Source: an uncultured virus (IMG/VR IMGVR_UViG_3300042519_003322) (lineage: Duplodnaviria; Heunggongvirae; Uroviricota; Caudoviricetes). Taken from it: 64,000 nt of DNA. Every line of letters begins with the position of its first letter. Position 1 is the first letter of the stretch. The DNA is taken from IMG/VR virus record IMGVR_UViG_3300042519_003322, one strand, 5' to 3'. The notes under the pieces are model-generated. The model was not told where the DNA came from. It saw only the letters and a program-made list of their open reading frames with translations, and searched no databases. Made by a program: the position numbers and the translations under genes. Below are positions 374 to 46,318 of this stretch, piece by piece.

Positions 374-612
374 TTTTTCTTTTTCTCTTTTTGTTCTCTC
401 TTGAGCGGCTTCATATATATAGGTGGCGTTGGAGTGCCCAAGGACGGTATGTCTAAAACAGAAACCTTACTATTTTTTGTTTCTTCTTTTGCCTTATTTT
501 TTCCCGTCATTTGTCTTTTCGCAACAGGTAGTCCACGTTTTCCTATTTCGTTTAATTCTAAACTAAAAATATCTTTGTTGTCTTCTTCTTTACCAGGGCC
601 CATAGTGTCCAT
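370..612 (-). CDS. small basic hypothetical protein
   Basis: 80-aa ORF that fills the gap between flanking minus-strand genes and overlaps both; exact start uncertain. Confidence 0.5.
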   Translation of the reverse strand: MDTMGPGKEEDNKDIFSLELNEIGKRGLPVAKRQMTGKNKAKEETKNSKVSVLDIPSLGTPTPPIYMKPLKREQKEKKKK

Positions 613-3600
613 TTTCGCTCATGCTCTTTTCTGCTTCTTCAAGGCTGAATACACTTACGTCCTGCTCTGCAATGTTGCCAATGGCGTAATAAACAGCCTT
701 CGGGATTTCAACTTCATTCCCATTAGAGTAGTCCCTAACCCACTCGACGCCGTCTCTCATGAATTCGTTCCATGCGTGCGGGAACCTGAGTCCTTCGGCA
801 TCTCCTCCCGTTCCAAGGGGATAGCCATGAGCTATTTTCATGCTTTCATAAGTTTCGGCCAAATCTCTTGCCTGCTCTATTGCTTCACTAAAGCAATCTC
901 CGTCTCCGTTAGGGACTTTCTGATTATATTTTTTCTCGAATTCATCGTCATGCAATTGCATACTTCGTAGTAGGCGACCCCCGTTGTCGTCTGTTGCACC
1001 ACTTGAAAGGTGTTTCTGTGCGGCCTGTTCAAAAAGGGCGATAGAAGCATCTTCTACTTCTGTCATATTTGGAACGTTGAACTGATTTGGTACCTCAAAA
1101 CTTGCTATCGGTGTTCTGGCCTCAAAAATCTGATACTCCTGAGACGGGAACCCTTCTACTACCTCTCGCTCGGGAACTCTTACGAGATATGTTTTACTTG
1201 TTGGGAAGGCATTGCGCACGTATCCCCTGCTAGGCCCGAAGGAAGCATGGTTATAACTAAGATGTTCTTTGCCTGCTTTTGCTAGCGGATAGGCATATTC
1301 ATATCGCGCCATCACCCTTCGTCCATTATCAATATAGCCACGAGCAATGTCCCTCAAATATTCAGGATTAATGCGTTCGTCATCTTGGCCCGCTACGTAG
1401 GTCTGATATTCCTTGCGGTCCCTATCCCTGCCTGGAACTCTTGTGTTTTGGGCCAACTTTGGCCCATCCCAAACTCCAGTTTCATCATATTCTTTCAGCG
1501 CGAGTTGATAGGCATTGAAATTGCTTTCCGCCTCCTCGTAGAGGCTAATTATACTGTTTCGGGTTGTCTCATTGAGCCTCTGGGTATCCATGCCTTGACG
1601 CAAGTAGGTTCCGTCTCCGCCCTTGGGTAGCGTAAATGATGGGTCGAGGACTCCGCCCTCGAGTATCGGTGCGCCAGTATGAATCAACCACATCGCATCG
1701 GGGTCATCTTTGGTTAACGACCACTCCCTGTCCTCCCACGAACCACGTGATTCTCTTATTTTTTTGCCACGTTCGGCTAGGGCTGCAAAATTTGGGAGGT
1801 CGGCGATTGATACGGCATTTACATGTGCAATATCTCCATCATTTTCCATTCTGTCCAAATTGATAAGTCGTTCATTTACGTGGTCTAGTTGTTTTTCAAT
1901 TTGAGATAGGTAGCCATTAAATGTGGAACTTAAAGTGTCCTTGTCCCCCATCCCACTTGATTCTTCTGCTGAGATATTTCGGGTTATGCCTGATTTGGGA
2001 TTTTTCGTTCGTGGTAATGCGACGCCGTTTGTTTCCCCATTCCATACGCCCGTTTTTTGCCATTCATCAATAGTTTTTGACAAGGCAGATTGTTCGTCTT
2101 GTAATACTTTTTGCAACCGTTCTAAGTCTGCTCGCCCAAAAGTATTTCGTAATTCCGACCCTGATTTGCCAAATGAATCACTTGCAGTGACGTCCATCCA
2201 TTGAGAAAGTATTGTTGAACCACTACTAAGAGTGTCGCCACCAGAAGAGAGGGATTCCTGTTCTGAGTCTTCTATGAACTTTCGTTTAGCATCCTCAAAT
2301 TCAGAAACCGCTTTCTCAAATTTAATTTGCGTCTTACTCTCTTTATCACGACGCTTGCCTTTGTCTAGGACGTCAGCTGGCCAATTATTTTCAATAGCAC
2401 CATCAACAATTGCTTGTAGAACTTTTGCCGTTGCTTCGGCGTCCGCATCGGCGTTATGATGCTTGTCCCCAAGGTCAACGCCAAGATATTTAGTTATGTC
2501 CCCAAGTGAGTTTGAAGGTGACTTGGTCCCATCCTTGTTCACTCTGAACGGTGCGTCGGGATTCGTCTCTGACCATTTTGGAAGTACCATGTCGGAAATT
2601 TCCTTGGTGTCAATAATTCCCTTGGGTCTCCATTCAATGCCTGATTCTTTCAACGCGTCTTCTAGGACTTCGTTATCGAAAACAGCATTTTGCATGCCCA
2701 TCAACTCTGTATCACCCATGAATTCAACCAGTTGCCTATGGGCCTCTGCTATTGAAGGCTTGTCTGCTAGGTATGCATCTGTTATTGGGTTGCCATCTCC
2801 ATCCTTGAGATTGTCTTGCGACCATTTTTCCCATTCCGACATTGGCATGCCGGGGTTAACAAAAACGTTGAATCGCGCAATTACTTCACCATTCTTCATT
2901 TTTACAGCGCCTATTTGAGTAGGAGAGCCGTTCCCTGCAGATTCGTTGAACTTGTCAAATTTAAGACCAGTTGTTTCGTAGTCAATGAAAACTATTTCTT
3001 TGTCTGCAATGGCGCTCTTGAAATCTTCCCAATTAGTTATTCCGTCAAATTCCGAATCCGCAGAGCCAATAAAGGCGCCCATGGTTGGCTTACGAGGATA
3101 TTGCGGAGGCTTCGCTCCAGATGAAAGCTCTTGTATTTGCGCCATGAAGCTTCTATTTGTTGCATAATTATGCGCGTGGGTATTTCGTAATTTTTCGCTC
3201 GAAATAGTGAAGGTATGTTTCTTTCTGACGTTCGTCTGTCCTCTGGCGCCTAAATCAACTGTTGATGTTTCATGACTAACTAAAGCATCCCCGAGTTTTT
3301 CTTTGAGGGATTCCAGCATGTCCGGCGTTGAGTCGTCTGTTTCTATGGCAACAAGATTGTATGAATTGTTTCTGTTGCCAGAAGACAGTGCCGCGCTTCG
3401 TGCTTGTCCGTCCGTCTTGAGAACTAAGGCACCCTTTTCTTGAGGGTCAAAAGCGCCAACCTGACGTAGGGTGACTACTTCTTTATATAGTCCTGCTGGG
3501 TCCGGCTCAACGCTAATAACTTCAAGCCTTCCTCCAGAAATATGCTCACGTGGGCTCCTGTTACTGCTTTCATCATATAATGACTCGTGATAATACAGTG

Positions 3601-6600
3601 CCTCGTAATAGCCTTCGTGGTCTTCTGGAAGGGGCTCTCCCTCCCATTCGAGATTTATGCTTTCATTTCCTGTTTCTTCAAGAGCTTCTCCCATCTCCGT
3701 TTTTAAACGGCGCCTCTCCGATGGGTCTCTAGACTCTCTATAGTCTTCAACAAGTTTAATAAGTCTGTTAGCAAACTCTGTATCAAACTCGATATTCTCT
3801 TCATCAATTTCTCCTCTTTCTACACCAGCCAAGATGCTTTCCGCAAACTCATTAATATTGTAAAGAGTGTCGCTTTCATCCGTGCTATTGAAAAGTGGTT
3901 CAAATGTTCCTTCTGCTTTATAGGCGCCAGGGAAGTCTTCGAGAACCAAAAGAGCATCGGTACCAAACTTGGTCAAAAAATGTCCTCCACTAGGGGATGG
4001 TCCTTTATCAACAAAAGCAATTAATGGAATATCGACCTGAGCACCAACTTGCATTGCGTCAAAAAATTGTTTTGCTTCTTCCGGGGAGGAGAATGTCATG
4101 GCCCTGTATAGATAGGGCTGTCTGTCGTATTTGCCTTTATTTAGCAAAGAATCAACGATGTTGGCCATAATATAGCGAGCCTGCTCGGTTCTTGCTTCTG
4201 GAGAGACGGTGGCGTCAAATCGCATTGCATCTCCCCAAAATCCACGAGTTTCATCAATATTGGGGTCTCTGTCAGAATAATCTTTTATTCCGGCAAGTTC
4301 GTAAGAAGCCATTCTTATCTGACGACACGGCATCCATTCTTCCCAGTCCCTTACCGACTCGCTCATTACTTGTTCTTTTTGTTGCTGGTCGTGGTCGGGT
4401 AATGCTCCCACTGCAGCATAATCAATAATGTCTTCGACGGATTTCCATTTTGGAGTATGGGGTTTTTTCCCAGAAGATAAAGATTCTTTTCTTGACGGCG
4501 TACTAGTCCGACCCTCCCCTGTCCGCACCACGTCAAATATTCTAGACATGACGCTGCGTTCTCCATCCGGAGCAACCCTCGTCTCAGCGTTAGAAGAAAG
4601 TTGAATCGTCGGCCTTCCGTCGGTACGAGCTGCCCATGGCAAATTACTGGGGTCAACACCGGCGAGCGCATACACGTCATCGCGTAGTTTTTTGCTCAGA
4701 GCAAGTTTGGGCATGTCTTTGTTTGGATGCATAATTGCAACAAATGCTTCGGCAATAGCTTCCCGCTTGTTTACATTTCCATATGACGTTGCCGTTAGGG
4801 CCTTGTCGCGATTGGCTCCGAACATTTCCTCCGCACTACGTTCAGTTAAGTCTATGAACTCAGACCAGATTTTAATAGCCTCATCGTCCGCATCGGGGTT
4901 CATGTACTCGTCTGCTACTTCTAATGCAGCGACATAGCGTGGGTCACCAATATCCCCGGAGCCGTAGAAAGACTTTTCTTTGCGCGATTTACCATTCGCC
5001 TCCGAGTCCCATGCGGCCCTGTAATGAAGCCAGTGACCATATTCGTGCATTACAACACCGTGGAGCGACCTATCAACGTGTGCATCTCGTGGTTGAGGAA
5101 TTCTGGCAGGGTCAAGATTAATCGGGTAAACGCCTTTTTCATTCGTTGTCATCGACTCTCTGTCAATGAGGGCGCGTGGTGCTAGCCCTATTAATCCAAA
5201 TGCAGGAGAAGATAAACCGCTAATAAATTGCGACTTTTCCGCTCCGCGTTGCTGACGACTGAGTTCTAAGCGTTCTTTCATTTCGGGAGATACTTCAAAA
5301 CCCTCCATTGCTTCACGCGTGAAGGAAACAATCATCGGCGAACCAAAGTTTTCAAACATCCACAACATCTGTGGAGAAGATTTGAGCATTCCCTCCACTA
5401 ACTCTTGTGTAGCTTTTACGTTCTCTGGTGAGTAATCAATATCTAGACTGTTTTTATTAGCCCTCAACTCGTCGTAGTACTTCTGCAGGAACTCGCGCTC
5501 TTTGCTGTTTGTTCTCCATGAACCACCAGCCATATCGTCTGCCCACATTTCAAAATGTTCCGCTTGTGAGCTCGGAATAATAACGCGAGAGATTTCTTCT
5601 GGGGTCATTCCAGCAAGCCACTTATTTGAGTTTCTGCGTACTTCATTCCCGGAAGCATCTGGCTTGCCGTACCCCTTTACTGCACGTCTTCCTGGTTCAA
5701 TAGTTGGGCGTCTCAGAATGGGTCTTGCAAGTATGCGAGGACGCTCTCGTCCGGATGCAAGTCTATTGCTCATTCCTAAGGCGTCATACGCAAGAGCAAG
5801 CTCAACATCTTCAGGGTCGGCTTCATAGATTGACTTACGGCCAGATGAAAGCCCCTTAGTGGTTGATGCTGCATCAAGTTTCTTGATAACGGAACCAAAA
5901 TCACCTGCATATACGCGTGGTGTTGATGTGCGTGTATCGCCTACGTCTTGATATGCGACGTCAAGTATGGTTCTTGCTCGATTAATGCGCTGAACGATTC
6001 CTGTAGTATCTTTTGCCTCATCATTTCTACCCTCTTTGATTCGATTGGCAGAGTAAAGTAAATAGTGAAGGTGTTTTACAGCTAATTTTTCTTTTGGCGT
6101 CAAAGGAGAATCGGGGTGGTCAATGATTGACATCATGGCTAGGTCATTGGCCCACTCCCCGTGACGGTCAAAGCCTCTTCCTGTTCCCAAGTGCCCGAAT
6201 AGGTCATGAGAATCCTGAAGAGCCTTACCAGTGAGCCCCATATTAAATTTAGATGGGTCAGTTATCCCGCCGATGTAACCACGAATATAGGTAGAAGAGT
6301 TGTGAATTCTTCTAGAGCCTTGAACAAAGAGTCCCTCATCCCCCATCAATTTGCCAGCCCGACGCGAAAGCTCCACCATAAATTCTGAATGTTTTTTCCA
6401 TGCCTCGATATATGGCTTGGGCAATGTGTCTTGCTGTAAGCGTGGAAGACTGAGCTTGTCACCCGCTATTACGAATCCTAATGGAGCTATCATTTCCAAC
6501 AATGGGAATCTAGTTCTGGCTTCTTCGCTCTCAAATTCCAAGGAAGAGCTGCCATCTTTATCTATTTTTCTTGCAACAATATTGCCATCAGTGTCGAGCC

Positions 6601-9600
6601 AAACATTGTTTTTAAATATAAGAGTGTCTTTAAGTGCTTCATCAAGTATCGAAAGAACATCATCTCGTTTTGGTAGCTCGACAGTACTCCAGTCTCGTTT
6701 GTCTGGAATTTGTTCTGCCAGTTGAGGTATTGGGTCAGCAGACACGAACGGGATTCCGTCAGAAGCAATATCAATCGCTATCGAGGACAGTAACTGCTCC
6801 CCAGTTTCGGAAAATGCGTCGCTGACCTCAACATCTAAGAGTGTTTTTTCAGCAATTTCGTCCAATAAACCAGGAATAGTATTTTCAATAGTGTTCTTTT
6901 GATTTGTTGTTAGCTCTGTGCCGGTTTTTTCTTCTATTTTTTTTATTATTCTTTCAGCAACTCTTTTGCTGGTCAACACCTCTCGCGATGAGCCCATTCG
7001 AGTGGCCTCTTCTTGAGTTACTTCTCTTGGTTCATCAAACGCATCCGCGAGGTTTGCTCCAGATTTTGGCGTACGTCGTTGTACTCTTCCAGAAGAAAAC
7101 CCACTGTCTTCATAAATTGTTTCAATTCTGGCTGAGGAGTACTTATCCGAATTGCTATCGTAAATTCTTAATTTTGCATTAGGACTCAATCGGCCGTAGT
7201 CATAGGCGGCCATGCGAGAAGAGGCGCTATTTACATAAAAATTATCAAATTCTGCCAACCTGACACTTGGGTGGTCTGCGTGAGGCGACCCCACGACACC
7301 TTCGGCATATTCGGGGTATTCTTTCGGTATATCCTGCAGTGCGACCACCCCCACCCGGTCGTCGGCATTCGGCGTTTCTGAAAAACTTTCTCCGCCTAAA
7401 AGCGTCGGCGTAATATATTCGGGATGCCCATTGTGCAGTTTGCCTACTTCAAGCAAGGCCTCATGAACGGATTCCTTCAATTCCTTGCCAGAGCCTTCCA
7501 CGACCTTTCCTTTTTTCATTGGTATGACAAGTCCTTCACCTGGCTTTGGTGTGAGGAATGTGTCAACTACGAAAAGGTTGTCCAAGGAGCCGGGGTTAGC
7601 GTCAAGTACGTCTCTTAGTGGAACGATGATAACGCTTGTTGATTCCGTGGGCTCATTTCTCCACATATGACCCTTGACCATGTGATTAAGGGTCATATGT
7701 ATGGAATCGCGGTCTGGCATGGCGACTGGCTTGCCTGATATGGGGTCCAATAATTGCTCGCCAGTATTGGGGTCAATTGGGATAAAATCCCCGGTTGGTT
7801 TAAGAATAATATTGCCGTCGTCATCATACTGAGGCTTATATGATGTTTGGTGAACAAGAAACATGTCATCGATGCCTAGTGCTCTTGTTGTGCGGACGGT
7901 GTCGCCGTATTCATTGGTTCTTGTCGGGCCAAGAACGACTTGCATATTTGGCGTGTCGTCCCAATAGGTGCCGTCAACGTCCCACATCTGTTCGTTGTAC
8001 ACCTTCGCAGCCGATACGAAATCTCGTCGGTTGTTTACTAAAAGCTCCTCACCAATTTTTGCCAAACGTTCCAGTTCTTCTAGGGCAGGCTTATCTCCCC
8101 GCTTCGCAGCATAAGTTAAAGCTGCGACTAGGCCAACTTTTCTATTGCCAACACGCCCAGCCTCAATGTCGTCAAGAAGAGAAACTGCTTGAATCGCATG
8201 AAACATTTTCAACGCCCACTCTTGTCCTTCGGTGGAGGTTTTGGGCAGTCCGACAATTGCGTAAGGATTTAGAGGGACTATCTCTATATCTTCGGTATTG
8301 AACTCAGGCTGGAATCGGCCCAAGTCAGTATTGCCAAACGCAAATTTTTTCCCGTCAATTTCGTAAACCGGGAATTCCATATATTGTTTTTGACTAGAGG
8401 TGGGGTCGGGCGTACCGCCAGAATCAATTAATTTAGTACCTAGTTTCGGAAACTCCGTTGAACGCATCATCTCGACTGGTTCTGTTTTTACGGTTCCGAT
8501 GCGCCCACTGGAAAGTGCGCCGGCTGGAGTCTTTCTCTTGGATACTTCACGCACGTAAAGAATCGACAATTCTTTTTCTTTGAATAATTCCGTTGCTCGT
8601 TGGAATTTGAGAAGATTTTCTGGGGTTGAGTCAGTTTCAAATAAGCCCGTATCAGGATTTTTCCGTATTAATGACGATATCCGGGATTTCTCTTCCGGAC
8701 TAAACCAGTTCTGTTCAGTATCATCGAGGGCTTCTGCGATTGTCCCAAGAAAAGTTTGTTTCCCTGGTTCCCCGGCCCACGTGAATCCATTTCTAGGCCA
8801 GTGCGTCGCCCCAATGGATTCTTCGGTATTGGACGTCCCCGCTGCAAATATTTTTAATTGACCGATAGCTTCGTATATTTTTTCATTTCTTGCATTGAAT
8901 GCGCTTCCTATGCCGTGTCCTTGAGACTCCGAATTCAGAAAGAAAGTCTCATGCTGCATCGTCGCCGTTGGTTTATCTCCAGGAAAATACGAAAGCATTC
9001 TTGCGGAGCGACCAAATTGCACTTCTCCTTGGGTGCCGGGCCCAACCGACATCATCTCATCCCAAATCATTTCATCTGGCACCCCGGCTGCAGTTAGTCG
9101 TTCTGCGGCATCGGCAGTGGGGGTTAGTTTGAATTGAAATCTTGCGGCTAGGCCAATGCCGGTTGAATCGGCTGAAAGAAATGGTTCAAAAGTTTGGTCT
9201 TGGACTAGTTGTATATCTTCTTCACTTACTTCGTCTATCTCCACCTGCCAGCCAAGGGCTTCGAAAGATTCAGCAACATCAACAACAACAGTTTTTCCTA
9301 AATTTATTTTTTCGCCATTAGTAGCGGTGACGATGATGTCTTCCTCTAACTCAATTTCTCCACTAAAAATTTCACGTAATAAATCATGCACTCTTTTTCT
9401 TTGTGCTGCACGCTCTGGTGAATCATTTAAAATATCTATTCCTGTGCCAAATACATCAGTATCTTCACTATACGAGTCGGCGCTATCAAGTAAATCGCTT
9501 CTTAATAATTCATTAAGCTCGTCTATCTGACGCAACTTTTCTTCGGTTAATTCTGGCTGAGCATCGACAAGCTCTTGATATTTTTTTCCAGACGAAAGAC

Positions 9601-17576: not shown

Positions 17577-17580
17577 TCAC

Positions 17581-26717: not shown

Positions 26718-27222
26718 CTTGCTGCTCCTCTAGTTGGCGAAGTGTTTTTGTAGCCCGCCATGCGAAATCTCGTTCTTCCGCGGTTTTGAAAATAAAGTTA
26801 TTTGCATTTAACTTTACCATTTGATTGCAGCATGACTTCGTAAGCATTCTCTGTTCAATGGTTTCTGAGATAAATGATTTGACTGCACGTTTTGTTTTGT
26901 CAATCTTTTTCTTATTTTTGCCGACAACAGCATGCGAAGGCATTGACTCAAGTAATGAATCGTTGACTGGTCTTGTTTTGGTTATAAAAGTTTCATACCA
27001 TGCGCCAGATGTTGGTCTTTTGGGAGCGTCCCACATAAATCTCTGAAATGGGGTAGTGCGAAGTTTTGTAAAATTCCGAGCAGTGCTCGAGAGGTGAATG
27101 ATGTCAGCTTTCAATGCAGAGCCGTCAGAACGTTCGACTATTGCGTCTTTTTGTCCAGGCTTTGCATCTAGGTCATAATAGACACGACTATCGTTCAAGA
27201 GACCAACCAGTACTGACTTCAC
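26707..27222 (-). CDS. hypothetical head-region protein
   Basis: 171-aa ORF translationally coupled to its neighbours. Confidence 0.6.
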   Translation of the reverse strand: MKSVLVGLLNDSRVYYDLDAKPGQKDAIVERSDGSALKADIIHLSSTARNFTKLRTTPFQRFMWDAPKRPTSGAWYETFITKTRPVNDSLLESMPSHAVVGKNKKKIDKTKRAVKSFISETIEQRMLTKSCCNQMVKLNANNFIFKTAEERDFAWRATKTLRQLEEQQDVG

Positions 27223-35781: not shown

Positions 35782-37524
35782 TTAGTTGTCGTCTACGGAG
35801 TCTTCGAGCAGCTGAAACTCGACAAGAGACGCCATGAATTCTGCGTCACTTAAATTACTGCTGCTTTTTTCTTCTCCACCGGCTATCCAGTTTGCTGGAA
35901 TCAAGCTCTCTAACTTGAGGGCGCGAGCACGTTTCATAATGTGCTTCTTGGTTGCCTCTTTGTCTTTTGCTCGACCAAATGCTTGAATTGCATTACGCAA
36001 ATCGCCTTCAGAGACAATTGGGTAAGACCCGTCTTCCATGGCCATGCCATCTTTTGCCAAGTCCATGCGCCTCTCTTCCGAGAACGCATTTTTCATCGCA
36101 ATTTCTGCCGCTTCGGCTTCAATTCCTTCAATCTCGTCGGATTCATACTTGTCGTAGCCGAGGACTTCTCCATCCAATGCCACGAATACGTCATATGACT
36201 TGCCATCAAAGCCTTCTATTTCAACGGCATACGAATCAAAGCCCTCAAATATATCGGGCTCAATCGCTACTACTGTTCCATCAATTGATTTGACAGCAAT
36301 TTCAGCAGCTTCCGTAAAGTCAATTAGTCTGAAACTACCGATGTCTGATTTCTTATCGAATTCCGTCATGTCAAGTTTGTGGAAACCAAGAATTTCCGCA
36401 GAGGTACCATCGACAAAAACTTCGTTTACGGAACCATCTTTTACCTGTACATCCACAACGAACATATCGGCATCTGGCGAATAACCAGAATCAACGACTA
36501 CGCCATCAAACATTTTCTCAGCGAGACCTTCAACATGAAGAATCCCTGGCATGCCTTTTTCGGCAACGCAACCTCCTGGGCAGTCATCGCAAACTGGCGA
36601 AGAGCCACCATAGGCCTTGCGCTCAATAGCGCACACATAGCCTGTCGCACCAATATCAGCGACCTTCAGTCCCATGGACCCAATACGAGCGCGACGAATC
36701 TCTTCCCACTCAGTATGAAGCGGGGAGAAAGACTTGGCACCCATTTCTGCGTACTCTTCATCTTCCTCTTCTTCATCTTCGTCTTCTTCGAGCTCTTCGT
36801 CTTCTTCTTCGGCATCCATATCTGGCATGGCGCCTTCCATGCCCTTTCGGCGACCCTTGACGTGTCGACGACCATTCATCTTTACTTCTTCGTCCTCTTC
36901 GAGCTCTTCTTCGACTTCTTCTTCCTCGAGCTCCTCGTCGTCTTCTTCGCCATCCATGACTGGCATAGCGCCTTCCATGTTCTTTCGGCCGGCGCGACGC
37001 ATTCGCATCATCTGCTTGTATTCTTCGTCTTCTTCGTCTTCTTCGTCTTCTTCCATGACGTCTTCTTCGTCATCCATTGCTGGGACGGCCATGCCCATGC
37101 CTTTTTTCTTCTTAGGCATTGCATGCATCATCTTTTCGTCTTCTTCGACTTCTTCTTCCTCGAGCTCCATGGGCGCGACCATGCCCTTCTTCTTCGGCAT
37201 AACGGCGGCCATTTCTTCCTCCGTCATGTCTGGTTCGTCACCTTCGTCGGCCATCTCAAGAAGTGCATGTCCAGGCTTTTTATTATTGCCTTTTTTCTTG
37301 ACGGAAGCAGAGGTGGGATTCAACAACTCTTCCTCATCCATCTCCTCGTCTGCTTCTGGTTCAGCAACAGCGGGCACCATCTTCATTTCTACGGGCATAG
37401 CTCCGCACTTGGCACATAGTTCTGCGCCCTTGACGAAGCCGCAATCTGCGACAGCGCCTTTTGCGCACTTAAGAACATTGCCGCCACCGTCAATGCTTAG
37501 CGTAACTTTTTCGTCGTATTTCAT
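35782..37524 (-). CDS. acidic scaffold/core-like head protein with PepSY-like repeats
   Basis: Long Glu/Asp/Met-rich repeats, two PepSY-like segments ending in V.VD...EILG and VFV..DGEVLG, and C-terminal DGSYPI....DL.NAIQAFGRAKD...K.HI..RA.AL. Confidence 0.7.
   Translation of the reverse strand: MKYDEKVTLSIDGGGNVLKCAKGAVADCGFVKGAELCAKCGAMPVEMKMVPAVAEPEADEEMDEEELLNPTSASVKKKGNNKKPGHALLEMADEGDEPDMTEEEMAAVMPKKKGMVAPMELEEEEVEEDEKMMHAMPKKKKGMGMAVPAMDDEEDVMEEDEEDEEDEEYKQMMRMRRAGRKNMEGAMPVMDGEEDDEELEEEEVEEELEEDEEVKMNGRRHVKGRRKGMEGAMPDMDAEEEDEELEEDEDEEEEDEEYAEMGAKSFSPLHTEWEEIRRARIGSMGLKVADIGATGYVCAIERKAYGGSSPVCDDCPGGCVAEKGMPGILHVEGLAEKMFDGVVVDSGYSPDADMFVVDVQVKDGSVNEVFVDGTSAEILGFHKLDMTEFDKKSDIGSFRLIDFTEAAEIAVKSIDGTVVAIEPDIFEGFDSYAVEIEGFDGKSYDVFVALDGEVLGYDKYESDEIEGIEAEAAEIAMKNAFSEERRMDLAKDGMAMEDGSYPIVSEGDLRNAIQAFGRAKDKEATKKHIMKRARALKLESLIPANWIAGGEEKSSSNLSDAEFMASLVEFQLLEDSVDDN
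36730..37230 (-). repeat. imperfect coding repeats MEGAMP.MD.EE.DEELEE
   Basis: Repeated tcttcttcg/tcttcgtct units and duplicated gcgccttccat segments. Confidence 0.75.
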
Positions 37525-37654
37525 ACAGCTCCCGTTAGTGCAGGGAAATGACCGGATAGACCATTAACCAATAATGTATTTAAATTATAACCTATCACGC
37601 TATACGTGAGTGAATTAGGAACACCCAATACTTCTCTTTGATTTTTTAGCATCT

Positions 37655-40600
37655 CTAACTTACTTTTCTCTTTTTGCCAGACAAGGTTTCACCAGACTCA
37701 ATTCTTTCTGCGGCAGTTCTCAGTTGTTCGGCGCTAAATATGTCATCGATGGTGTGATTGGTTCCGAACACTTCATTAAATCTGTCAACTATTGATTGCA
37801 ATTCTGAGTCAGAGAATCTTGCTTCGTTTCCTTTTTTCGGAGACCATGCCGAGCCTTTTGCCGTCGCAGCATCTCTTAACGCAACACCCATGTCAGTTCT
37901 TCCAGTTATCTTGTTTCGACTGGCTTGGCTATTGAGCTTGCTATCAGGAAAACTCTTGTCAATAAATTCGTTTAATGCTTCATACACGGCGTATTTTGAT
38001 TTCTTCAGTTCGTTGTCAAATCTTTCGCCCGTGGACGCGTCTTTCCAGACTGAAGCGGCGTTAGGTATTAACCCAGTTCTAATCATGTGAGCGACCGTGG
38101 CCGTTGGTATTCCGTCTTTCTTCCATTCGTCCCATGCTCCGACGGCATCCATTCCGAAAGCAGCAGACATTCGTTCTTTAAGGGTCGTCTTCCATTCTTG
38201 TCTATCGATTCCTAGATATTTCAGAAGCTGCTCTAATTCAAAATCTTCTCTGCTTGTTTTGTCTCCACTAATTATCTCACCATCTGGTTCCGCACTAGGC
38301 AGAACGCCATCAATAAGCTCTCCGTAGAGGTCGTATTCTGCCTCTGAGTCGCCCTTGGTCGGGTCCTCTGGGTCAAAGCGACCAGTTGCGCGGAATTTAG
38401 ACACTGCGCTAATTTCGCCAAGCTTGCTGTATTCGTCTGGCGTTATGGACTCGCCCTCTTCCGGGTCGAACCAATGAGGGAACGCGTCCTTGCCGAAGGT
38501 CTCGATTATGAACCTGTCACGCATGTTTGCGCGACCAACATTTTCCAAAGCAAGGTCTATCTTTGAGAATCCTTCAACATCACCACTGGGTGATGGCGGG
38601 ATAATCTTTGCTACTTCTTCGGCGCTAACTGGGGAAAAGTATCGCCATGCGCTCAGCTCTGGTTGCTTGCCGAGTTCGGCAATAAGCAGTCTGACAGCAT
38701 CATGGTTGATGCCGGCGTCCGGCGCTTCCAGGGCTGCCGTATCTGGACCATTCAAGCCAAGAAGTGTTGCAAGCTCTTTGCGTGTAACCGGGCGGGTCTG
38801 AGTCCACTGTAGCGAACTCTTCCCGTCCCTATTGGCGGAAACAAATTCGGTCGGAACTCTTAGAGTTTCAGCAAGTTTGTCCACGGACAGCATCCATGTC
38901 AGCGCCGAGGGAGCGTCATTCACGTTATTGTCGCCCACTCTGCCGACACGAACGAGGTTTTGGCGCTTCTTCATCTCTGCACCAACTGACTTTATTGTTG
39001 CAGCGTTTTTAGATTTGCGTGCTTCGGTTTCTGATGCATCGTCGTCCACATCTATTGCTATTCCGACGTCACGGAAACGCTTCCACACGTTCATTGAGAA
39101 ATTCAACTTGGCTTGCTCTTTTGGCGACTTTAAGTCACCCCTAAAGCGAATGCCAGCAATTTCTTGTGCGCTTCCGCTGCCATCGTAAATTCTACTGCCG
39201 CCTGACGACCCTCTTCTATTGAGTCTGCCGTCGCGACGAGTTGGTGTATTTTTGGGGCCACTACCCGCTCCACTTGACAGGCCTGTCGATGGGTCTGGTT
39301 TTGCGCCGCCCCTTGCAGGGAGGTTGTCGAAATTGATATCTTCGACGCGCATGGCGTTTAGTTTTTGATAGAAGTCCGGCAGCGGTATTCCGCCCTCATC
39401 GCCAAATGCTCCTCTGTCGAGCCCTTCTGGGATGTGTCCATCTTTTACGGCTTGAGCCATCGCTTCGCGAACTGGCTTCGTTTTCTGGTCGTGCAAATAA
39501 AAGGCAAAGGTCTTTGCTCCTGGGTCTATCATTTTTTTAGCACGTGAAAGGCCTACATGTATGAGATTCGTTGCCTGCATCCATCCTATGGAAGCCTCAC
39601 CCTTCGGTGTACTTTGAGGCAATAAGTCATCAGGGTCGTCAATGTCGTCCGCCATAACGAGATAGTCGAATTCCCGCCCCTTGCTCAGTGCCATCGTGGT
39701 TATTTGAACATCTCCGCCAACTTCCTTTGCTTCGTCACGAAGAGCCTGACCGAGAAGTTCCAATATGTCCGAACTTTCTTGTAGAGTTTCTCCTTCAATC
39801 ACCCAACCGTCATACAGGCGACGCTTAGAACCTCCCTTCATGGCCCCCTCTGCCTCTTCTTTGGGCTTAACCTTGTCTTGAAGTCCATATCTTTGAATTA
39901 TTTTCTCGAGATTCCTTCTGAATCTACCGTTACCAACCCTTTGATTGGGTGCCTTGTTTCTTGACTCAGAACCATCATCGTTGATTTTTGGCCGATTACT
40001 ATCAACGCCATCTCCAGTAATGATTATTTTGCCGGTTGGCTTTCCTGGTTTCGTACTGCTACCACCATTAATTTCGAGCTGTGCATAAACAGCCGACCTT
40101 CCATCGGTGGCTCCAGTTGGTTGAGGAATTATAATTATTTTTTTACGCTGACTATCACTCGCCTGTTCTGCTTCTGCCGCTTTGGTGCCGCGAGATATTC
40201 CCATAACTACTGCCCTGACACCTTTTGATGGGTCTGAGTCATCGCCAGTAAAATTGTTTAGTTGTTGAGTTTTTCTTTCTGGCAATAGCACCGCAGGAAC
40301 GGTGCGAATTTTTTGTTTGCCGTTTACTTCTTCAACAATATTTTCACCCCGAAGAAGGGTGAGCATTCCGCGAGTTCCAAGAGGCGCTTGTCCTGGTGGG
40401 GCTGTCGTTATGAGTCTGTATGCGGTGGTTAGCTGTTGGGACCTGGATTGTTTAAGTAATTGTTGAAGTCTTCCCTGTGTCCAGACTGGCCCAAGCCACT
40501 GGGATTCAGGGGGACGTCCCCCAAATATTTTTTCGTATGCCGCTTGCTGTTCTGGACTTTTCATGATGTAGTCAAGTTGAATAGTAAATGCCAACAAATC

Positions 40601-43600
40601 TTCATGTTTTTTGGCTGGAATAACTACTTCTGGTATTTTTGGGAATCCATTTTCGTCTTTTTCGGCGTTCGGCCTATTGATGACTAGGTCAATGAACTTG
40701 AGGGCCCAGTCTATAATTTCCGCATTAGTCCCTGTTAAAATGGCGTCTGGGAAGATGCCTTGATTGGCGAGTTCAACAAAGTCGACTATTTTTCCTTCTC
40801 TTTCATCGTAGAGCTCGTCGCGTAGTTGTTTTAGAATTGCATCCTGAGCAACTCTGGTCTTGTCAGATATCTCAATTTTTTTATCTGGTGTTGAAAATCT
40901 TTTTTCAATATCGTCGATAATCAGGGCGCGTGTTTTGTCGTTGATTTCTGGAACTTGATTTGCGCCTTTTCTGTCTTTTTTTGCAAGCACTGGGTCAAAC
41001 AACATGTTTATGACCTCTTGTGCCTGACCCTTCACATGCTTCCAGTCCATTGACTGCGGAACTTCCTGTCCTCTCAGGTAGAGGTTCTGTCGACCAAGTG
41101 CCATGTTGGTTAAGTGAGCGACGACTGGTCCATACCTAAATGATTCGGTTATTGATAGCGAATATTCAGCATCAAGGGAATCAAGTATGTTCTTCGCATC
41201 GCGGAAAGCATAAACAGCCTGTCTATCATCACCCACTAAAATTATTGGAAGATTTTTTCTATTGTTTTCTAATACGGTTTCCAAAATTTCATTAGAGTCT
41301 TGAGACTCGTCTACCATGAACGCGCTGAGTGGATTCTCGACAGTGGCAACCCGCTTGGCAAGTCTTGCTTTTACTTTGCTACTTGAACCATCTCGCGAGG
41401 TTCCCGCCACAATCCATTCTTCACCGTTCTCGTCAACATACTTGTCTCCAACTTTGTATGTATTCGGTATCGGCACTTTGTTTCTTGTTTGATTTTCAGA
41501 ATGCGTTATGAGGCCAGGGTCGGTTCTTAAGTCCGGATTCGAAAGTAGCCATAGTTTTTGAACAGAGTCCCTTCGCGGAATCATGTTGCTGTTGCCGTCC
41601 ATCATTGCATCTATCGCTTGCTGGAGGGCCTCAACCCACAATTTGGGTACTTGGTCCTCTGTGAGGACCGTGTCCACGACATGAATGTCTTTTCCCTGGC
41701 CTTTAGGGGTGGTGCGGCCCTCTGCACGATATGCCGACGGCGTAAACATCCATGCTGCTGCTTTTTCTTCTTTTGATATTTCCCATCTTCCGAGAGCGTT
41801 ACTGAGAATATCGGCCATTTCTTCAGTGGTTACTTGTGTTGTTCCTCTTCCATCAGGGAGAATAAATATTGACTCGTCGTATTGTTCACGAACTTCTTTG
41901 CCGTTGGCGTCACGGACTGTTCTGCCCTTGGAGTCCTTCTGTACTCGGTCTCTTCTTCTGGTTTGCTGGTCGGGCCATTTGTCTATCCCAAGGAATTTAA
42001 TCCAGTCCACGGCATCATCAAGTCTCTGCCAACCAAGGGTCCTGTAACCAGGCTCCTCTCCTACAAATGTTTCAATCGTGCCATCAAAATGTTCGCGAAC
42101 AAAATCGGAACCAATTCTCCTTGGTTCATCTGGAGTTTTTTCTTTACTTATAAATTTTGGATTATCTTTACCGCTTCCGGCGGCTGAGTTATCTGCTTTA
42201 AGTTTCTGGACTGCCATTTTTCTACGGAACGCAGGACCAAATCTTTTGTCGCCACCACCTAGCATTAGAGACCAAAGAAAAAGCTTGTCGGTCGTGGCTA
42301 TACCCGTATTTTTAGGGAATTCTTTCTCGGCTTCATGCTGGTTTTTTGTGTTAAAAACCGTGTAATACATATTGCCCATGGGGTTGTCTTTTGCAAGTTT
42401 TGCTACTGCTAACGCAATTTCTTCTGAAGACATCTTGCTAAAATCAATCTTATATCTATCTGCTAAATACTTGAGTTGTTCTTTGCGACGCTCGTCGCCT
42501 TCTGGCCATAGGTTGAATTCACGAGCCAACGCCCATGCAATACTCTTCAGGGTTGTAGTTTTTCCTGTTCCTGCACCAGCAAGAATAGACATGATTTGTG
42601 GGTTTTTCTCACGAACAAGACGCATAACAACATCCATAATGTCTCGCTGCTCGTTTGTTGGCTCATTACTTAAGCCGAACGCAAACTTCATGGAAATATC
42701 TTCATCGGTGCGCTCTACGTCGGGAGCGCCCTTCCTGCTCTTGATTGGGCCAGCCTTTTTGCCGCTTGCCAAAGCTCCAGATGGCGTAATTACTACGCCG
42801 TCTTTGTTCCTGCGTATAGCATTTGGATGAATCTGGAAGGAGCGCATTTCGCGCTCTTCGATACTTAGATTTCGAGCATCCGGAACAAGTTCGTCGTACT
42901 GCTCCATGTCAAGCAGGTCTTCCATTGGTCCCGTGATTGTTGTTGGTGACTTTATTTTTTCTCCACCCGGATATCCAGCAATCATTGGTATTTCAAACCA
43001 GCCCGAGTCCTTGCCCTTGCGTTCGCCGTCAGGGATACCTGCGAGCTTGCGCATTGTGGCAGAGCGGTCCATTATGTAGTCATTTGCTTTCTGCGCCTGC
43101 AGAATGGCCCGGTGAATTGCTAGCGGGTCTTTTTGTAGTTTCTTTATCCAGCTACTTAGGTAAAGCAAATGGTTTTCTTGTATCGTTGGTTCAAGGCCCA
43201 TTGCGCCCATTGCAAACGCGGAGCCTATTTCTGCAATAAGTTCTTCAAAGGCGTAATCTTCGTCTCCAAACGTTTTCCCCAATTTTCTGTCGAGTCGACT
43301 CGGATGCGATGTCCAGTGGATTGTCTCATGCATTGCAGTTCCATAAAAAGCCAAAGCATCCTTGAACTGTTCAAATGCAGGCATATGAATTTTGTCGGTG
43401 GCGGGGCGATAAAAAGCCTGCGAGCCTAGAGATTCGACAAAAGAAGGACCTATTTCCTTAATGACATTTTCTATATCCTGCAACCGTTGCTCTTGGTTTA
43501 TTTCTACATCACCAAGCTCGTAGAAACTTTCTGGGAGTCCTGCAATTTCATCGACGTTGTATACCGTTTGAACAGAATAGTAGCGACCCATTTCAACTTG

Positions 43601-46318
43601 CTTGCCAGTTGAATCAGTAAAGCTTCGTCCTTCACGAGGAACGAGAACCTGCACTCCCCTGTTTCTGCCTCCCGGTTTTACTTTGCCGCCTAACTTTTTC
43701 CACTGTCCCTCTCCGGCCCATCGATTCATTTTGTAGCCGCGAGCTGAGCCCGTAAGGGACAAAATCATCTGATTCATGCCTTGGTAGATGCGGTCACTAG
43801 TTGGATTCCGCGCATAATTCTCGGCATTACGCCATGGCAATTCCCATCTTTTTGATGCGTCTGGATTGTTGGCGAGTTCCTGCAAAATAGCGACAATATC
43901 TTTTGCCATTTCCTTGTATAACTCTTCAAGCTGGCTGGAGCCTTCGGGAAGCTCTGCCTTGTCTGCCAACTTTCCTGATGAAAGCGAGGACAGGGGGCCG
44001 TCATATTTGCGGCGCTCGTCTTGCGTCCGCTTCGCCTCGGGCTTATTTAGATACTTGCCGTAGCCGCTTGAAAGACCCTGACTGGTCTTTTCTACCTGCT
44101 TCTTTACGGGCTTTTTCTTTGGCTTTTCAGTATCAGCCATTTCGCCTTCGGCCATCTTCTCGACACGTTCCATGTATTTGTCGATTTCCGCAATGGCCTT
44201 CTTTAACTTCTTTATTTGGTCAGAATCTGATGCTCCATCCAAAACGCCTTGAAGCTCGTCACGCTGCGACTCTGCTGCGCCATATTTTTCTGCCGAATCA
44301 ACATCCGGGTCGTCTATTCGCGGAAGATTTACAAGCTCGCTTCCAGAGGAAAGTTTCTGGCGCTCTTTAGGTTTTGTTATTTTCTCTACTTGAATTTCCG
44401 CTCGAGAAATTGCTGCAGCATTCGGCTTCGCAACCTGCCTGGGGGATGGCTTGGGGTTACGAATAGAGCCAGGACCATCTGGTGTTGGGTCATTTACGGC
44501 AAGCGGAACTCCACGCAGGAACAGTCCCTCTCCTACGATGCCGTTAAGGTTGGAGTCGCGTGCAGTGAATGGGTCAAAGTCTTCCGCACCCACAGATGTG
44601 AAGAAACGACCGCGAGAACGACCTCCGCCGATGTTTGGGCGGTCAATTAATCGACTGCTGATAGCTCTGCCGAGGCGATACCCGGCTGCTTTCCACTCTA
44701 GGTTGTTTTCACTTAAGGATTTTTTTTTTAAATTTGCGACAGCGTTGTCGACTGCCTCAATCAATTCGTAAGTAACGCCAGAAGTCATGAAGATACCGCT
44801 TGTGTCGACGTAAGAATCAACACCATGGTAATCAAAGATTGGGTCAAGAACTTGTTTTACTTGGAACGCGAACTGAGGTACAACTGGAAGTAAGTATGGC
44901 TTGTCTTCAAAATCTTCACTCTTGGAACCAAATTCACTCAAGAACTTAAAGCTCCGACGCTTCTTTCTCCGCTTGCCGACCACTCCACGAAGTCCTGCAA
45001 CTGCTAATTCCCCGGGGTATTTCACCTCGAGGTCAGCGACGTAATCTTCTTCGGCGAATTCCTCGTCGAGTTCATATGCTTTTGAGCCGGCTCCCTTGAC
45101 AACGCCCTTTGGGATGACGGCAAAACGACACTTACCTTCAGGTTCTACTTCCATGTCGATTATCTTGCAGGCGCTTCCACCCTGATAAAAGACGCAGTTG
45201 GAGCACTTGACGCCGATTCCGGCAACTTCATTTTGTGCAGCAGGGGTATACGCTGCCCATACTCCCTCGGAATCTTCGTTAAACTTTCCGTGACGCTTTA
45301 CGATTTTTAAAAGAGCATCTCTTAAGTCAGCTTCTTCTTGGTCAAGATTACTTGGGTCAAATCGACTTCCATTATCGTTTTCGTATTGCACTGGTGGCAA
45401 AGGAACTATCTGGTTGCCGTTTTCGCCTGGCTTAATAGCAACTGGGATTGATGGCATTTGAGAAGGCCGAACAATTCTTTGTGGCTCATTTGGGGGCATA
45501 CCTGGCATCGCCATTGGCATTGCGCTTACAGGAGCAATGGGCTTACGCACGGGCATTACAACAATGGGGCGCGGCGCACCGAACATATAATGTCCGCGAT
45601 TATTGCTGAATCCACACTTGTAGCGGCCAACTTCTCCGTTGTCCATTCTTCGCGCAAACGTAATCTCTTCGTCGTTAACTTCCATTAAAGATACTTTTGC
45701 GCCCAAAATTGCAGCAAGCTGCTTTTCTATCTCTGCCTTGTCAATTGGGTTTTCTTCGTTCATCATGGACATCAAGATTCCACCGGACAACTCTTCGGAC
45801 TTAACGGAAATAGTCCCAGTTAGCTGGTTTGCGCCATGCAGAACCGGAGATACCTCATATAACTCAAGTTCATAAATGATATTTGCTTGGGATTTCTGGT
45901 CAAACTGAGCTCGAAGTGTCTTGTAACCAATCGACCACTCCTGCTCTTCGCCAAAGAAGGCGACCATGGCGAATGCTTCGCGACCTTTTTCTGAATTGAG
46001 ATTGAACTGAACTCGAGCGAACAGGCCACCAATTCCGGCCATCTTCATTTTCATAGGAAGGCGATTATCCGTGTTCGGAACTTCGTAAATCTCTAGAACC
46101 TTGCCAATGGGGTCATTCCAACTGTGTCCCCAGACAACGCGCGGCTTACGGCGTTGGAGGCTCTTCGTGAATGCTCCAGTGGCAACGATGTCGCCCACAG
46201 AGTCCTTGTTGCCGATGCCAGCCACGAAGCATTCGACAATTCCCTGCGCTTCATCCAAATTGATGGAGTCGGAGTGCCCGAGCGTAGACGACTTATATTC
46301 AAACAATTCTGATGGCAT
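37655..46318 (-). CDS. HK97-type prohead protease fused to Cys-rich, ArdC (ssDNA-binding + zincin) and UvrD-like SF1 helicase modules
   Basis: Protease: DSVGD...GAF...WGH...PIG...WSIGY...LYEVSPVLHGAN. ArdC: PW...NP.S.R.YQGMN...QWKKLGGKV...HETIHWT...YAFEELIAE. Helicase: AGAGTGKT, VDESQD, VGDDRQAVYAFR, ESFR, SKGREFD, VGLSRA. Confidence 0.88.
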   Translation of the reverse strand: MPSELFEYKSSTLGHSDSINLDEAQGIVECFVAGIGNKDSVGDIVATGAFTKSLQRRKPRVVWGHSWNDPIGKVLEIYEVPNTDNRLPMKMKMAGIGGLFARVQFNLNSEKGREAFAMVAFFGEEQEWSIGYKTLRAQFDQKSQANIIYELELYEVSPVLHGANQLTGTISVKSEELSGGILMSMMNEENPIDKAEIEKQLAAILGAKVSLMEVNDEEITFARRMDNGEVGRYKCGFSNNRGHYMFGAPRPIVVMPVRKPIAPVSAMPMAMPGMPPNEPQRIVRPSQMPSIPVAIKPGENGNQIVPLPPVQYENDNGSRFDPSNLDQEEADLRDALLKIVKRHGKFNEDSEGVWAAYTPAAQNEVAGIGVKCSNCVFYQGGSACKIIDMEVEPEGKCRFAVIPKGVVKGAGSKAYELDEEFAEEDYVADLEVKYPGELAVAGLRGVVGKRRKKRRSFKFLSEFGSKSEDFEDKPYLLPVVPQFAFQVKQVLDPIFDYHGVDSYVDTSGIFMTSGVTYELIEAVDNAVANLKKKSLSENNLEWKAAGYRLGRAISSRLIDRPNIGGGRSRGRFFTSVGAEDFDPFTARDSNLNGIVGEGLFLRGVPLAVNDPTPDGPGSIRNPKPSPRQVAKPNAAAISRAEIQVEKITKPKERQKLSSGSELVNLPRIDDPDVDSAEKYGAAESQRDELQGVLDGASDSDQIKKLKKAIAEIDKYMERVEKMAEGEMADTEKPKKKPVKKQVEKTSQGLSSGYGKYLNKPEAKRTQDERRKYDGPLSSLSSGKLADKAELPEGSSQLEELYKEMAKDIVAILQELANNPDASKRWELPWRNAENYARNPTSDRIYQGMNQMILSLTGSARGYKMNRWAGEGQWKKLGGKVKPGGRNRGVQVLVPREGRSFTDSTGKQVEMGRYYSVQTVYNVDEIAGLPESFYELGDVEINQEQRLQDIENVIKEIGPSFVESLGSQAFYRPATDKIHMPAFEQFKDALAFYGTAMHETIHWTSHPSRLDRKLGKTFGDEDYAFEELIAEIGSAFAMGAMGLEPTIQENHLLYLSSWIKKLQKDPLAIHRAILQAQKANDYIMDRSATMRKLAGIPDGERKGKDSGWFEIPMIAGYPGGEKIKSPTTITGPMEDLLDMEQYDELVPDARNLSIEEREMRSFQIHPNAIRRNKDGVVITPSGALASGKKAGPIKSRKGAPDVERTDEDISMKFAFGLSNEPTNEQRDIMDVVMRLVREKNPQIMSILAGAGTGKTTTLKSIAWALAREFNLWPEGDERRKEQLKYLADRYKIDFSKMSSEEIALAVAKLAKDNPMGNMYYTVFNTKNQHEAEKEFPKNTGIATTDKLFLWSLMLGGGDKRFGPAFRRKMAVQKLKADNSAAGSGKDNPKFISKEKTPDEPRRIGSDFVREHFDGTIETFVGEEPGYRTLGWQRLDDAVDWIKFLGIDKWPDQQTRRRDRVQKDSKGRTVRDANGKEVREQYDESIFILPDGRGTTQVTTEEMADILSNALGRWEISKEEKAAAWMFTPSAYRAEGRTTPKGQGKDIHVVDTVLTEDQVPKLWVEALQQAIDAMMDGNSNMIPRRDSVQKLWLLSNPDLRTDPGLITHSENQTRNKVPIPNTYKVGDKYVDENGEEWIVAGTSRDGSSSKVKARLAKRVATVENPLSAFMVDESQDSNEILETVLENNRKNLPIILVGDDRQAVYAFRDAKNILDSLDAEYSLSITESFRYGPVVAHLTNMALGRQNLYLRGQEVPQSMDWKHVKGQAQEVINMLFDPVLAKKDRKGANQVPEINDKTRALIIDDIEKRFSTPDKKIEISDKTRVAQDAILKQLRDELYDEREGKIVDFVELANQGIFPDAILTGTNAEIIDWALKFIDLVINRPNAEKDENGFPKIPEVVIPAKKHEDLLAFTIQLDYIMKSPEQQAAYEKIFGGRPPESQWLGPVWTQGRLQQLLKQSRSQQLTTAYRLITTAPPGQAPLGTRGMLTLLRGENIVEEVNGKQKIRTVPAVLLPERKTQQLNNFTGDDSDPSKGVRAVVMGISRGTKAAEAEQASDSQRKKIIIIPQPTGATDGRSAVYAQLEINGGSSTKPGKPTGKIIITGDGVDSNRPKINDDGSESRNKAPNQRVGNGRFRRNLEKIIQRYGLQDKVKPKEEAEGAMKGGSKRRLYDGWVIEGETLQESSDILELLGQALRDEAKEVGGDVQITTMALSKGREFDYLVMADDIDDPDDLLPQSTPKGEASIGWMQATNLIHVGLSRAKKMIDPGAKTFAFYLHDQKTKPVREAMAQAVKDGHIPEGLDRGAFGDEGGIPLPDFYQKLNAMRVEDINFDNLPARGGAKPDPSTGLSSGAGSGPKNTPTRRDGRLNRRGSSGGSRIYDGSGSAQEIAGIRFRGDLKSPKEQAKLNFSMNVWKRFRDVGIAIDVDDDASETEARKSKNAATIKSVGAEMKKRQNLVRVGRVGDNNVNDAPSALTWMLSVDKLAETLRVPTEFVSANRDGKSSLQWTQTRPVTRKELATLLGLNGPDTAALEAPDAGINHDAVRLLIAELGKQPELSAWRYFSPVSAEEVAKIIPPSPSGDVEGFSKIDLALENVGRANMRDRFIIETFGKDAFPHWFDPEEGESITPDEYSKLGEISAVSKFRATGRFDPEDPTKGDSEAEYDLYGELIDGVLPSAEPDGEIISGDKTSREDFELEQLLKYLGIDRQEWKTTLKERMSAAFGMDAVGAWDEWKKDGIPTATVAHMIRTGLIPNAASVWKDASTGERFDNELKKSKYAVYEALNEFIDKSFPDSKLNSQASRNKITGRTDMGVALRDAATAKGSAWSPKKGNEARFSDSELQSIVDRFNEVFGTNHTIDDIFSAEQLRTAAERIESGETLSGKKRKVS

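Follow-up and report, generated by a model that had tools for sequence, protein, structure and literature searches.

A recurrent LSSG motif between the modules of giant phage polyproteins is a candidate protease cleavage signal

We analyzed a 64,000-nucleotide stretch of DNA (hereafter the window) from the uncultured virus IMGVR_UViG_3300042519_003322 (IMG/VR). The window encodes three giant polyproteins, G1, G2, and G3, in which the tetrapeptide L-S-S-G (LSSG) recurs. The motif is conserved in relatives, lies in linkers, brackets recognizable modules, and is replaced by other motifs at the same module boundaries in related clades. In addition, a head-maturation protease of the S78 family is fused to one of the chains. 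From these observations, we infer that LSSG is probably a protease cleavage signal, whichever of the candidate enzymes recognizes it. The S78 protease at the N terminus of G3 is the enzyme that we tentatively favor, with a confidence slightly short of even.

Results

LSSG is enriched in three giant open reading frames

All three giant open reading frames (ORFs) are on the minus strand. G1 (590..10507) encodes a polyprotein of 3305 aa and is located downstream of primase/helicase genes, outside the head module. G2 (27219..35768; 2849 aa) lies within the head module, and G3 (37655..46318; 2887 aa) is immediately downstream of the portal gene. A first-pass annotation of the window had reported 17 exact copies of LSSG in these ORFs, and we recovered every one at the coordinates it gave: ten in G1 (10121, 9587, 8504, 5840, 4469, 3377, 3116, 2240, 2219, and 998), three in G2 (31968, 31551, and 28329), and four in G3 (44342, 44063, 43973, and 39269). 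The variants that it listed were also all present, namely, LASG once in each giant (5750, 31668, and 42761), FSSG in G1 (7088), LSTG (35634), and LSSN at aa 1970 of G1. The exact sites divide G1 into pieces of 129, 178, 361, 888, 457, 364, 87, 292, 7, 407, and 135 aa.

The amino acid composition of the three giants (9041 aa) predicts 0.276 copies, in agreement with the earlier estimate of well under one copy, and the excess is approximately 60-fold. The annotation had also proposed a comparison with shuffled sequences; 5000 within-protein shuffles contained a mean of 0.27 and a maximum of 4 copies, versus 17 in the real proteins. LSSG is by far the commonest 4-mer of the giants, with the runners-up reaching 5 copies or fewer and mostly overlapping LSSG itself. 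The DNA 12-mers encoding the 17 copies are all different; therefore, LSSG is not a DNA repeat, and the earlier argument from codon variation that the constraint acts on the protein holds for 17 of 17 copies. LSSG was absent from the other 52 greedy-called ORFs (at least 50 aa) of the window. The annotation had found it in no other called protein except the tape measure, which stands within the window but not genome-wide: among 138 crude ORFs (38,742 aa) of the 119,748-bp genome, LSSG also occurs once in a 279-aa protein, besides twice in the 1619-aa tape measure.

An origin of LSSG by chance, through biased composition, or as a DNA-level repeat is practically negligible. The Ser- and Gly-rich nature of linkers is all that speaks for it, and against it stand the 60-fold excess, the 17 differing codon strings, and the retention of LSSG in relatives whose G3 N-terminal unit has dropped to 47% identity with that of the window.

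The motif is conserved among uncultured relatives

The N-terminal unit of G3 matched 68 IMG/VR loci with 47-100% identity, from which we collected 47 distinct ORFs of at least 800 aa. LSSG was the top or tied-top 4-mer in 38 of these 47 giant homologues, with up to 16 copies in 3133 aa (0.10 expected). The nine exceptions were either short fragments, mostly consisting of the site-free protease unit, or members of lineages with FSSG or LASG instead. The 193 unique instances gave the consensus (G/S)-x-[KR]-L-S-S-G-[RK]-[RK], with K or R preceding LSSG in 117 and R or K following it in 108. Within the core, Leu strongly predominates at position 1, followed by Phe and then Met; Ser strongly predominates at position 2, followed by Ala and then Gly; and positions 3 and 4 are nearly always Ser and Gly.

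LSSG was also a leading 4-mer in the G2-type giants encoded upstream of the capsid gene in further relatives, and the N- and C-terminal units of G2 are homologous to giants of four relatives (G001 to G004). The search for relatives of G1 returned only near-identical copies and one fragment with 50% identity; therefore, the conservation of G1 may be assessed only through its RNase_T module. A BLAST comparison among G1, G2, G3, and the other head-module proteins did not reveal a common end unit or targeting sequence.

The portal-to-capsid genes of the cultured actinophages Chidiebere (Gordonia) and Cantare (Brevibacterium) showed no LSSG enrichment. The expectation that homologues in related actinophages keep the motif while their modules are shuffled was borne out among uncultured relatives, in which the motif is retained (38 of 47) and the ArdC unit moves, but not in the nearest cultured phages. 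A repeated RLTDARTP peptide in Chidiebere belongs to a minor tail protein and has no relation to LSSG.

The separator is recoded between clades at identical module boundaries

We compared the window with four whole relative records, G001 to G004, the capsid proteins of which are 70-82% identical to that of the window. G001 uses LSSG (12 copies). In G002, the separator is (S)-I-S-G-R-M (14 copies of ISGR and none of LSSG), in G003 it is G-I-T-G-A-M (9 copies of TGAM), and in G004 it is G-G-M-R-S (19 copies of GMRS); an additional lineage has G-V-S-G-x-M. The giants of each genome use their own motif only, with 0 or 1 copies of the motif of another clade. Outside the giants, the motif of each clade occurs 0-3 times in 25,000-46,000 aa.

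Different motifs occupy equivalent positions. The RNase_T module is flanked on both sides by LSSG in G1 of the window, by ISGRM in G002, and by ITGAM/VTGSM in G003, with the upstream motifs occupying the same alignment columns across the clades. Similarly, a DnaJ module begins 11 aa past ISGRM in G002 and 11 aa past ITGAM in G003. In one lineage of the LSSG clade (L029), the sites have switched jointly from Leu to Phe.

When the motifs were aligned on their hydrophobic residue, L-S-S, I-S-G, I-T-G, V-S-G, and M-R-S all conformed to hydrophobic-x-(S/G), and the residue ahead of the hydrophobic position was mostly Gly in four clades. A similar rule, hydrophobic-x-small or hydrophobic-x-Glu, applies to herpesvirus assemblin, T4 gp21, and phiKZ gp175. 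Recoding at fixed module boundaries would be expected of a protease site that co-evolves with its enzyme, and we regard it as the most telling result of the present analysis.

The sites are located in linkers

Among nine aligned G3 orthologues, conservation was 0.75-0.94 in the motif columns and 0.17-0.57 in the 20-residue flanks, which were rich in indels; the protein average was 0.60. Within ±15 residues of the 17 sites, the Kyte-Doolittle value was -1.08 versus -0.64 for random positions, and only 1 in 10000 random sets was as low. These flanks were also poorer in the order-promoting residues W, F, Y, I, L, V, M, and C (0.19 versus 0.28), and none of 10000 random sets matched this value. 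In an AF2 model of a 1200-aa stretch from a relative, all eight sites were in coil with a pLDDT below 50; since half of all residues in this model are below 50, we consider this to be modest evidence for a linker position. In the AF2 model of aa 1-1200 of G3, the sites at aa 656 and 1183 were within segments with a pLDDT below 50, and the site at aa 749 was at the edge of such a segment. The S78 domain itself was also below 50 in this model. With hydrophilic, indel-rich, and low-confidence flanks, the sites lie in linkers, as the first-pass annotation had described; the G3 site at aa 779 was placed in a confident loop.

Recognizable modules are bracketed by sites

The conflict-type domains found in the giants of the window were S78, ArdC-N, MPTase, UvrD helicase, and RNase_T. 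The N-terminal protease unit of G3 (aa 1-659; 44342..46318, minus strand) comprises the S78 prohead protease, a four-Cys module, and a disordered tail, at the end of which stands the first LSSG. The first site after this unit is located at approximately aa 647-829 in the window and in 16 of the 16 full-length homologues listed, and only a few weak variants occur inside the unit.

The ArdC unit of G3 (aa 783-1186; 42761..43972, minus strand) lies between the LSSG at aa 779 and the LASG at aa 1183. It matches Pfam ArdcN (E 9e-16) and MPTase-PolyVal (E 9e-40) as well as a PHROG anti-restriction protein (E 1.5e-65). This unit has the make-up of an ArdC anti-restriction protein, with an ssDNA-binding domain of the ArdC-N family ahead of a zincin MPTase with HExxH at aa 997, and its function is predicted from these matches. 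In the window and in 14 of 14 homologues, a site is present 7-29 aa ahead of the Pfam start, another past the end, and none inside. The unit itself is mobile, being near aa 800 in some homologues and near aa 2240 in others, before or after the helicase. The UvrD-type helicase piece of G3 (aa 1187-2350; 39269..42760, minus strand) was identified by the Pfam families UvrD-helicase and AAA_19. In G1, the RNase_T (DEDDh) exonuclease (aa 2506-2697; 2417..2992, minus strand; Pfam RNase_T, E 3e-17) lies between the site at aa 2461 and those at aa 2753/2760.

The first-pass annotation had described a wider set of domains as bracketed by LSSG. This was correct for the DEDDh/RNase_T exonuclease, ArdC, and the helicase; however, the GNAT match (E 0.06) and the ParB matches (E 0.007 in Pfam and 1e-4 in PHROGs) were all weak. 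Similarly, the "about 20 enzymes" that it had envisaged correspond to 20 pieces (24 counting the variants), most of which have no recognizable function. Domain boundaries are also not all marked by a site: the 659-aa protease unit contains at least three sub-modules without an intervening site, two of which are separate genes in other genomes. In G002 to G004, the cargo of the giants includes DnaJ, a Zeta-toxin-like kinase, NUDIX, sigma-70 region 4, DUF3626, and an ATLF-like zincin, and most pieces match no family.

An S78 head-maturation protease is fused to G3

Residues 27-170 of G3 (45809..46240, minus strand) match Pfam Peptidase_S78 (E 9e-13; 49 bits against a cut-off of 21) and the PHROG head maturation protease (E 2e-27). 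G3 aa 4-227 share 37-39% identity with the proteins annotated as capsid maturation proteases in Chidiebere and Cantare, and we regard this region as their orthologue. H65 and S129, which we take to be the catalytic pair by reference to HK97 gp4, were invariant in 21 aligned S78 sequences. A PDB sequence search with the protease unit returned no match. Searches of the window ORFs and a Pfam scan of the 53 ORFs of at least 90 aa elsewhere in the genome did not reveal another maturation protease; the only peptidase in the latter set was a VanY cell-wall peptidase.

S78 was present in all five whole records, whereas MPTase-PolyVal was found in two of the five and was missing from one that is 100% complete. 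The S78 domain is fused to a punctuated chain in the genome of the window (G000), G001, and G004, and is a standalone protein in G002 and G003 (785 and 830 aa). It was N-terminal in 14 of 14 G3 homologues. G3 aa 475-538 resemble the last 70 residues of the standalone protease of G003; therefore, the first LSSG of G3 is located approximately where the G003 protease gene ends.

Genome setting, capsid protein, and tape measure

The head module starts with the portal gene (46445..48556, minus strand; Pfam Phage_portal, E 1e-51; PHROG portal), and its minus-strand order is portal, G3, a 580-aa protein, G2, five smaller ORFs, and the major capsid protein (21192..22541, minus strand; Pfam Phage_capsid, E 6e-41), with which it ends. 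The 580-aa protein (35782..37524, minus strand) is encoded in all five genomes with 54-68% identity over its C-terminal 300 or so residues; it is a core head-module gene. It had no family or PDB match, and the protein atlas gave unnamed viral clusters only. The portal protein does not contain an LSSG site. The terminase, connector, sheath, tube, and tape-measure genes are on the opposite strand from 48900, and G1 is preceded by WhiB, primase/helicase, and two small genes.

The capsid protein carries L-S-S-R-E at aa 95-99 (22245-22259), at the end of a delta-like N-terminal region, and 42 of 53 distinct relatives have L-[ST]-S there, whereas the clades with other motifs lack it. The protein shares 47-48% identity with its counterparts in the cultured actinophages Cantare and Chidiebere/GMA6. 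This identity, together with WhiB and DUF732, suggests an actinobacterial host, and the family probably consists of uncultured, actinobacterial myoviruses.

The tape measure gene starts at 63209 on the plus strand (window 63209-64000, G000:C1:34958-39817). Its first LSSG is at aa 36 (63314..63325) in the context KK-LSSG-RG. At the aligned position, G001 has FSSG and G003 has LTGAM, and no motif was present in G002 or G004. LASG/LSSG is also found in a Gly-rich stretch at aa 564-579. The enzyme proposed to process the giants may also process the tape measure, as judged from the shared motif.

Several other features of the genome were noted. The four-Cys module of G3 (aa 325-409; window 45092-45346) corresponds to a small gene of its own in G002, where it neighbors the capsid gene, and in G003, where it lies elsewhere. 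DUF6321 (20272-21093) is encoded by its own gene after the capsid gene in the window, whereas G002 and G003 have it fused to the protease. A PAPS-reductase-like gene (PHROG, E 2e-76) between two ParB-like genes at 54138-56907 (plus strand) is a candidate DNA-modification or anti-defense cassette. A ribonucleotide reductase gene is directly followed by an HNH endonuclease at 15651-18084 (plus strand), on the strand opposite to its neighbors. Outside the window, G000:C1:1194-19236 encodes a tryptophan halogenase (Pfam, E 6e-100), a 2OG-Fe(II) oxygenase, methyltransferases, glycosyltransferases, and a HAD/nucleotidyltransferase fusion. This halogenase cluster, the contents of which are unusual for a phage, adjoins a 1003-aa collagen-repeat protein.

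Discussion

As our preferred interpretation, we propose that G1, G2, and G3 are chains of independent modules on disordered linkers, each linker carrying [KR]-L-S-S-G-[RK], and that a phage-encoded protease would cut these linkers to release approximately 20 separate pieces. The S78 unit would bring G3, the polyprotein to which it belongs, into the prohead, and the entry of G2 would depend on its conserved end units. After prohead assembly, S78 would cut the chains into modules, including the ArdC anti-restriction protein, the helicase, the exonuclease, and others, and the freed modules would exit with the DNA at infection. By analogy with the assemblin-fold rule, the scissile bond is possibly located after the third residue (L-S-S/G). 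The head packaging of G2 and G3 is plausible from the position of their genes between the portal and capsid genes.

The release of separate enzymes from head-packaged precursors by cleavage at LSSG had already been proposed in the first-pass annotation. The conservation of the motif, its position in linkers, the bracketing of modules, the recoding between clades, the fusion of S78, and the location of G2 and G3 between the portal and capsid genes agree with this proposal, whereas the location of G1 and the sites in the tape measure do not fit its packaging part. G1, which carries 10 of the 17 sites, is encoded away from the head module, and it has no end unit in common with G2 or G3. The motif of the respective clade is present in the tape measure of three of the five genomes, for which cutting confined to the prohead would not account. 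Other results also weigh against S78 as the enzyme or against a linker position of every site. The S78 core is 71-75% identical between clades with different motifs, and no residue of the protease unit was unique to the two lineages with Phe for Leu. The capsid proteins of the ISGRM, ITGAM, and GMRS clades show none of their own motif at the position of L-S-S-R-E. The G3 site at aa 779 was modeled in a confident loop, and both AF2 models were low in overall confidence (mean pLDDT 54-55).

The same cleavage code may instead be read by a zincin metallopeptidase, namely, the HExxH unit of the G2 type and/or the MPTase-PolyVal modules. We consider this to be rather unlikely; however, the conservation of the HExxH unit makes it a serious rival to S78. 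Zincin metallopeptidases prefer a hydrophobic residue at P1', with which the predominance of Gly ahead of the hydrophobic position in four clades is compatible. HExxH occurs once each in G1 (aa 1821; 5033..5047, minus strand; within a weak MPTase-PolyVal match, Pfam E 0.1), G2 (aa 564, in its N-terminal unit; 34065..34079, minus strand), and G3, and not in the remaining 29,701 aa of the proteome. The N-terminal unit of G2 is, by this motif, a candidate zincin-type peptidase; although the unit is only 19-35% identical among five genomes, its H, E, and H and a later E..AE never vary. All 10 of the 10 additional relatives also encode the unit, each time within a giant frame, which gives 15 of 15 genomes overall. 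It evolves rapidly, as does the motif, and a soluble enzyme could also gain access to the tape measure sites. A zincin would act either in the cytoplasm or after delivery and cleave on the N-terminal side of the hydrophobic residue, in line with the autoprocessing by MPTase that Iyer et al. 2017 predicted for polyvalent proteins (PMC5512222). On the other hand, the G2 unit had no Pfam or PDB match in profile searches, such that the label of peptidase stems from the motif. MPTase-PolyVal is missing from three of the five genomes with punctuated giants, one of which is 100% complete. Several heavily punctuated giants do not contain HExxH; therefore, any such enzyme must act in trans. Furthermore, the G004 unit resembles that of the LSSG clade, yet the motif of G004 is GMRS.

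Two other readings dispense with a phage enzyme or with cleavage. If a host protease cut the motif, clade differences would reflect different hosts, which would agree with the marked similarity of the phage proteases between clades with different motifs. This is very unlikely because two phage-encoded protease candidates are universal in the family; a literature search on LSSG, phage, and protease gave nothing relevant, and we know of no actinobacterial protease with LSSG specificity. Alternatively, LSSG may be an uncleaved linker motif that serves for docking or targeting to the capsid interior, the portal, or a chaperone, or for modification on Ser. Conservation, linker position, and co-variation with the clade also fit a binding motif. 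However, the sites fall at the gene ends of other clades or where the neighbors have changed, and on both sides of each mobile module, which is the behavior of a separator, and a lone targeting tag would not need 10-16 repeats per chain. The nearest known analogues, the ejection proteins of the T4 and phiKZ types, are cleaved. Therefore, we consider an uncleaved motif to be unlikely, and cleavage by a phage-encoded protease, tentatively S78, is the reading that we retain.

The literature searched did not contain a description of an LSSG processing code; however, parts of the proposed system have counterparts. The small HK97 gp4 protease is a protein in its own right and degrades the delta domain of the capsid protein. 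The N terminus of G3 is similar in that it scores above the Pfam S78 cut-off, retains the conserved His and Ser, and represents the sole maturation protease encoded in the head module; it differs in that S78 heads a 2887-aa polyprotein. The motifs of T4/phiKZ-type proteases end in Glu (L/I-x-E and S/A/G-x-E). T4 gp21 (with IPI-III and Alt), phiKZ gp175, and SPN3US gp245 resemble the present system in combining an assemblin-like head protease, a short recurring motif, and packed and ejected substrates, the packaging here being suggested by the gene position of G2 and G3. Processing in the T4/phiKZ-type systems is mostly the removal of an N-terminal propeptide from single proteins, whereas a Ser/Gly tetrapeptide would here part up to approximately 17 modules of 3000-aa chains. 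The present protease is also S78, not of the T4 type, and is fused to a substrate, and the motif was not clearly found in the capsid protein. In SPN3US, many ejection proteins are cleaved at a short motif by a head protease (PMC10052503, PMC5694885, and PMC7411985), and one substrate, gp53, has several sites, similar to the giants described herein (PMC10052503).

The giants also resemble the polyvalent proteins defined by Iyer et al. 2017, for which the release of domains by embedded peptidases was predicted (PMC5512222). In both cases, ArdC-N, MPTase, helicase, GNAT, ParB, and nuclease modules are combined in giant conflict proteins of many domains, the genes of which neighbor virion genes, and delivery together with the DNA is predicted. 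The MPTase hub domain is present in G3 and in 14 of 14 LSSG-clade homologues, though in only two of the five whole genomes. According to Iyer et al. 2017, an assemblin-like peptidase, where present, is C-terminal in polyvalent proteins (PMC5512222), whereas S78 is N-terminal here (aa 27-170); this is a difference in architecture only and does not exclude the giants from the class. A further difference is the explicit clade-specific separator code visible here. P1 Dar/DdrB and the N4 virion RNA polymerase, which offer another parallel, are large head-packed anti-restriction or early-function proteins, some of which are processed (PMC5512222); in contrast to the giants, they are separate proteins without a repeated separator motif. 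The polyproteins of RNA viruses, adenovirus, and African swine fever virus share the principle of one product cut at a short consensus by a virus protease within the chain, but involve unrelated enzymes and motifs, and the present case would concern the delivery of cargo by a tailed dsDNA phage.

We also speculate, with more doubt than conviction, that these phages follow a true polyprotein strategy with an evolving, clade-private code. Dozens of exchangeable effector modules would be carried on a few chains by means of one separator, the protease and separator would co-evolve, and the code would also mature the tape measure. The exchange of modules between phages would then need the separator to be rewritten. 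The recoding of separators at identical boundaries amounts to a natural experiment in how a protease and its substrates co-evolve. If the sites are cut, they would provide a map of the start and end of each delivered phage effector, with approximately 20 pieces in this virus and hundreds in its relatives, most of them without an assigned function, and the predicted processing of polyvalent proteins would become open to testing. The separators and the small protease unit may also serve as tools for multi-protein cargo.

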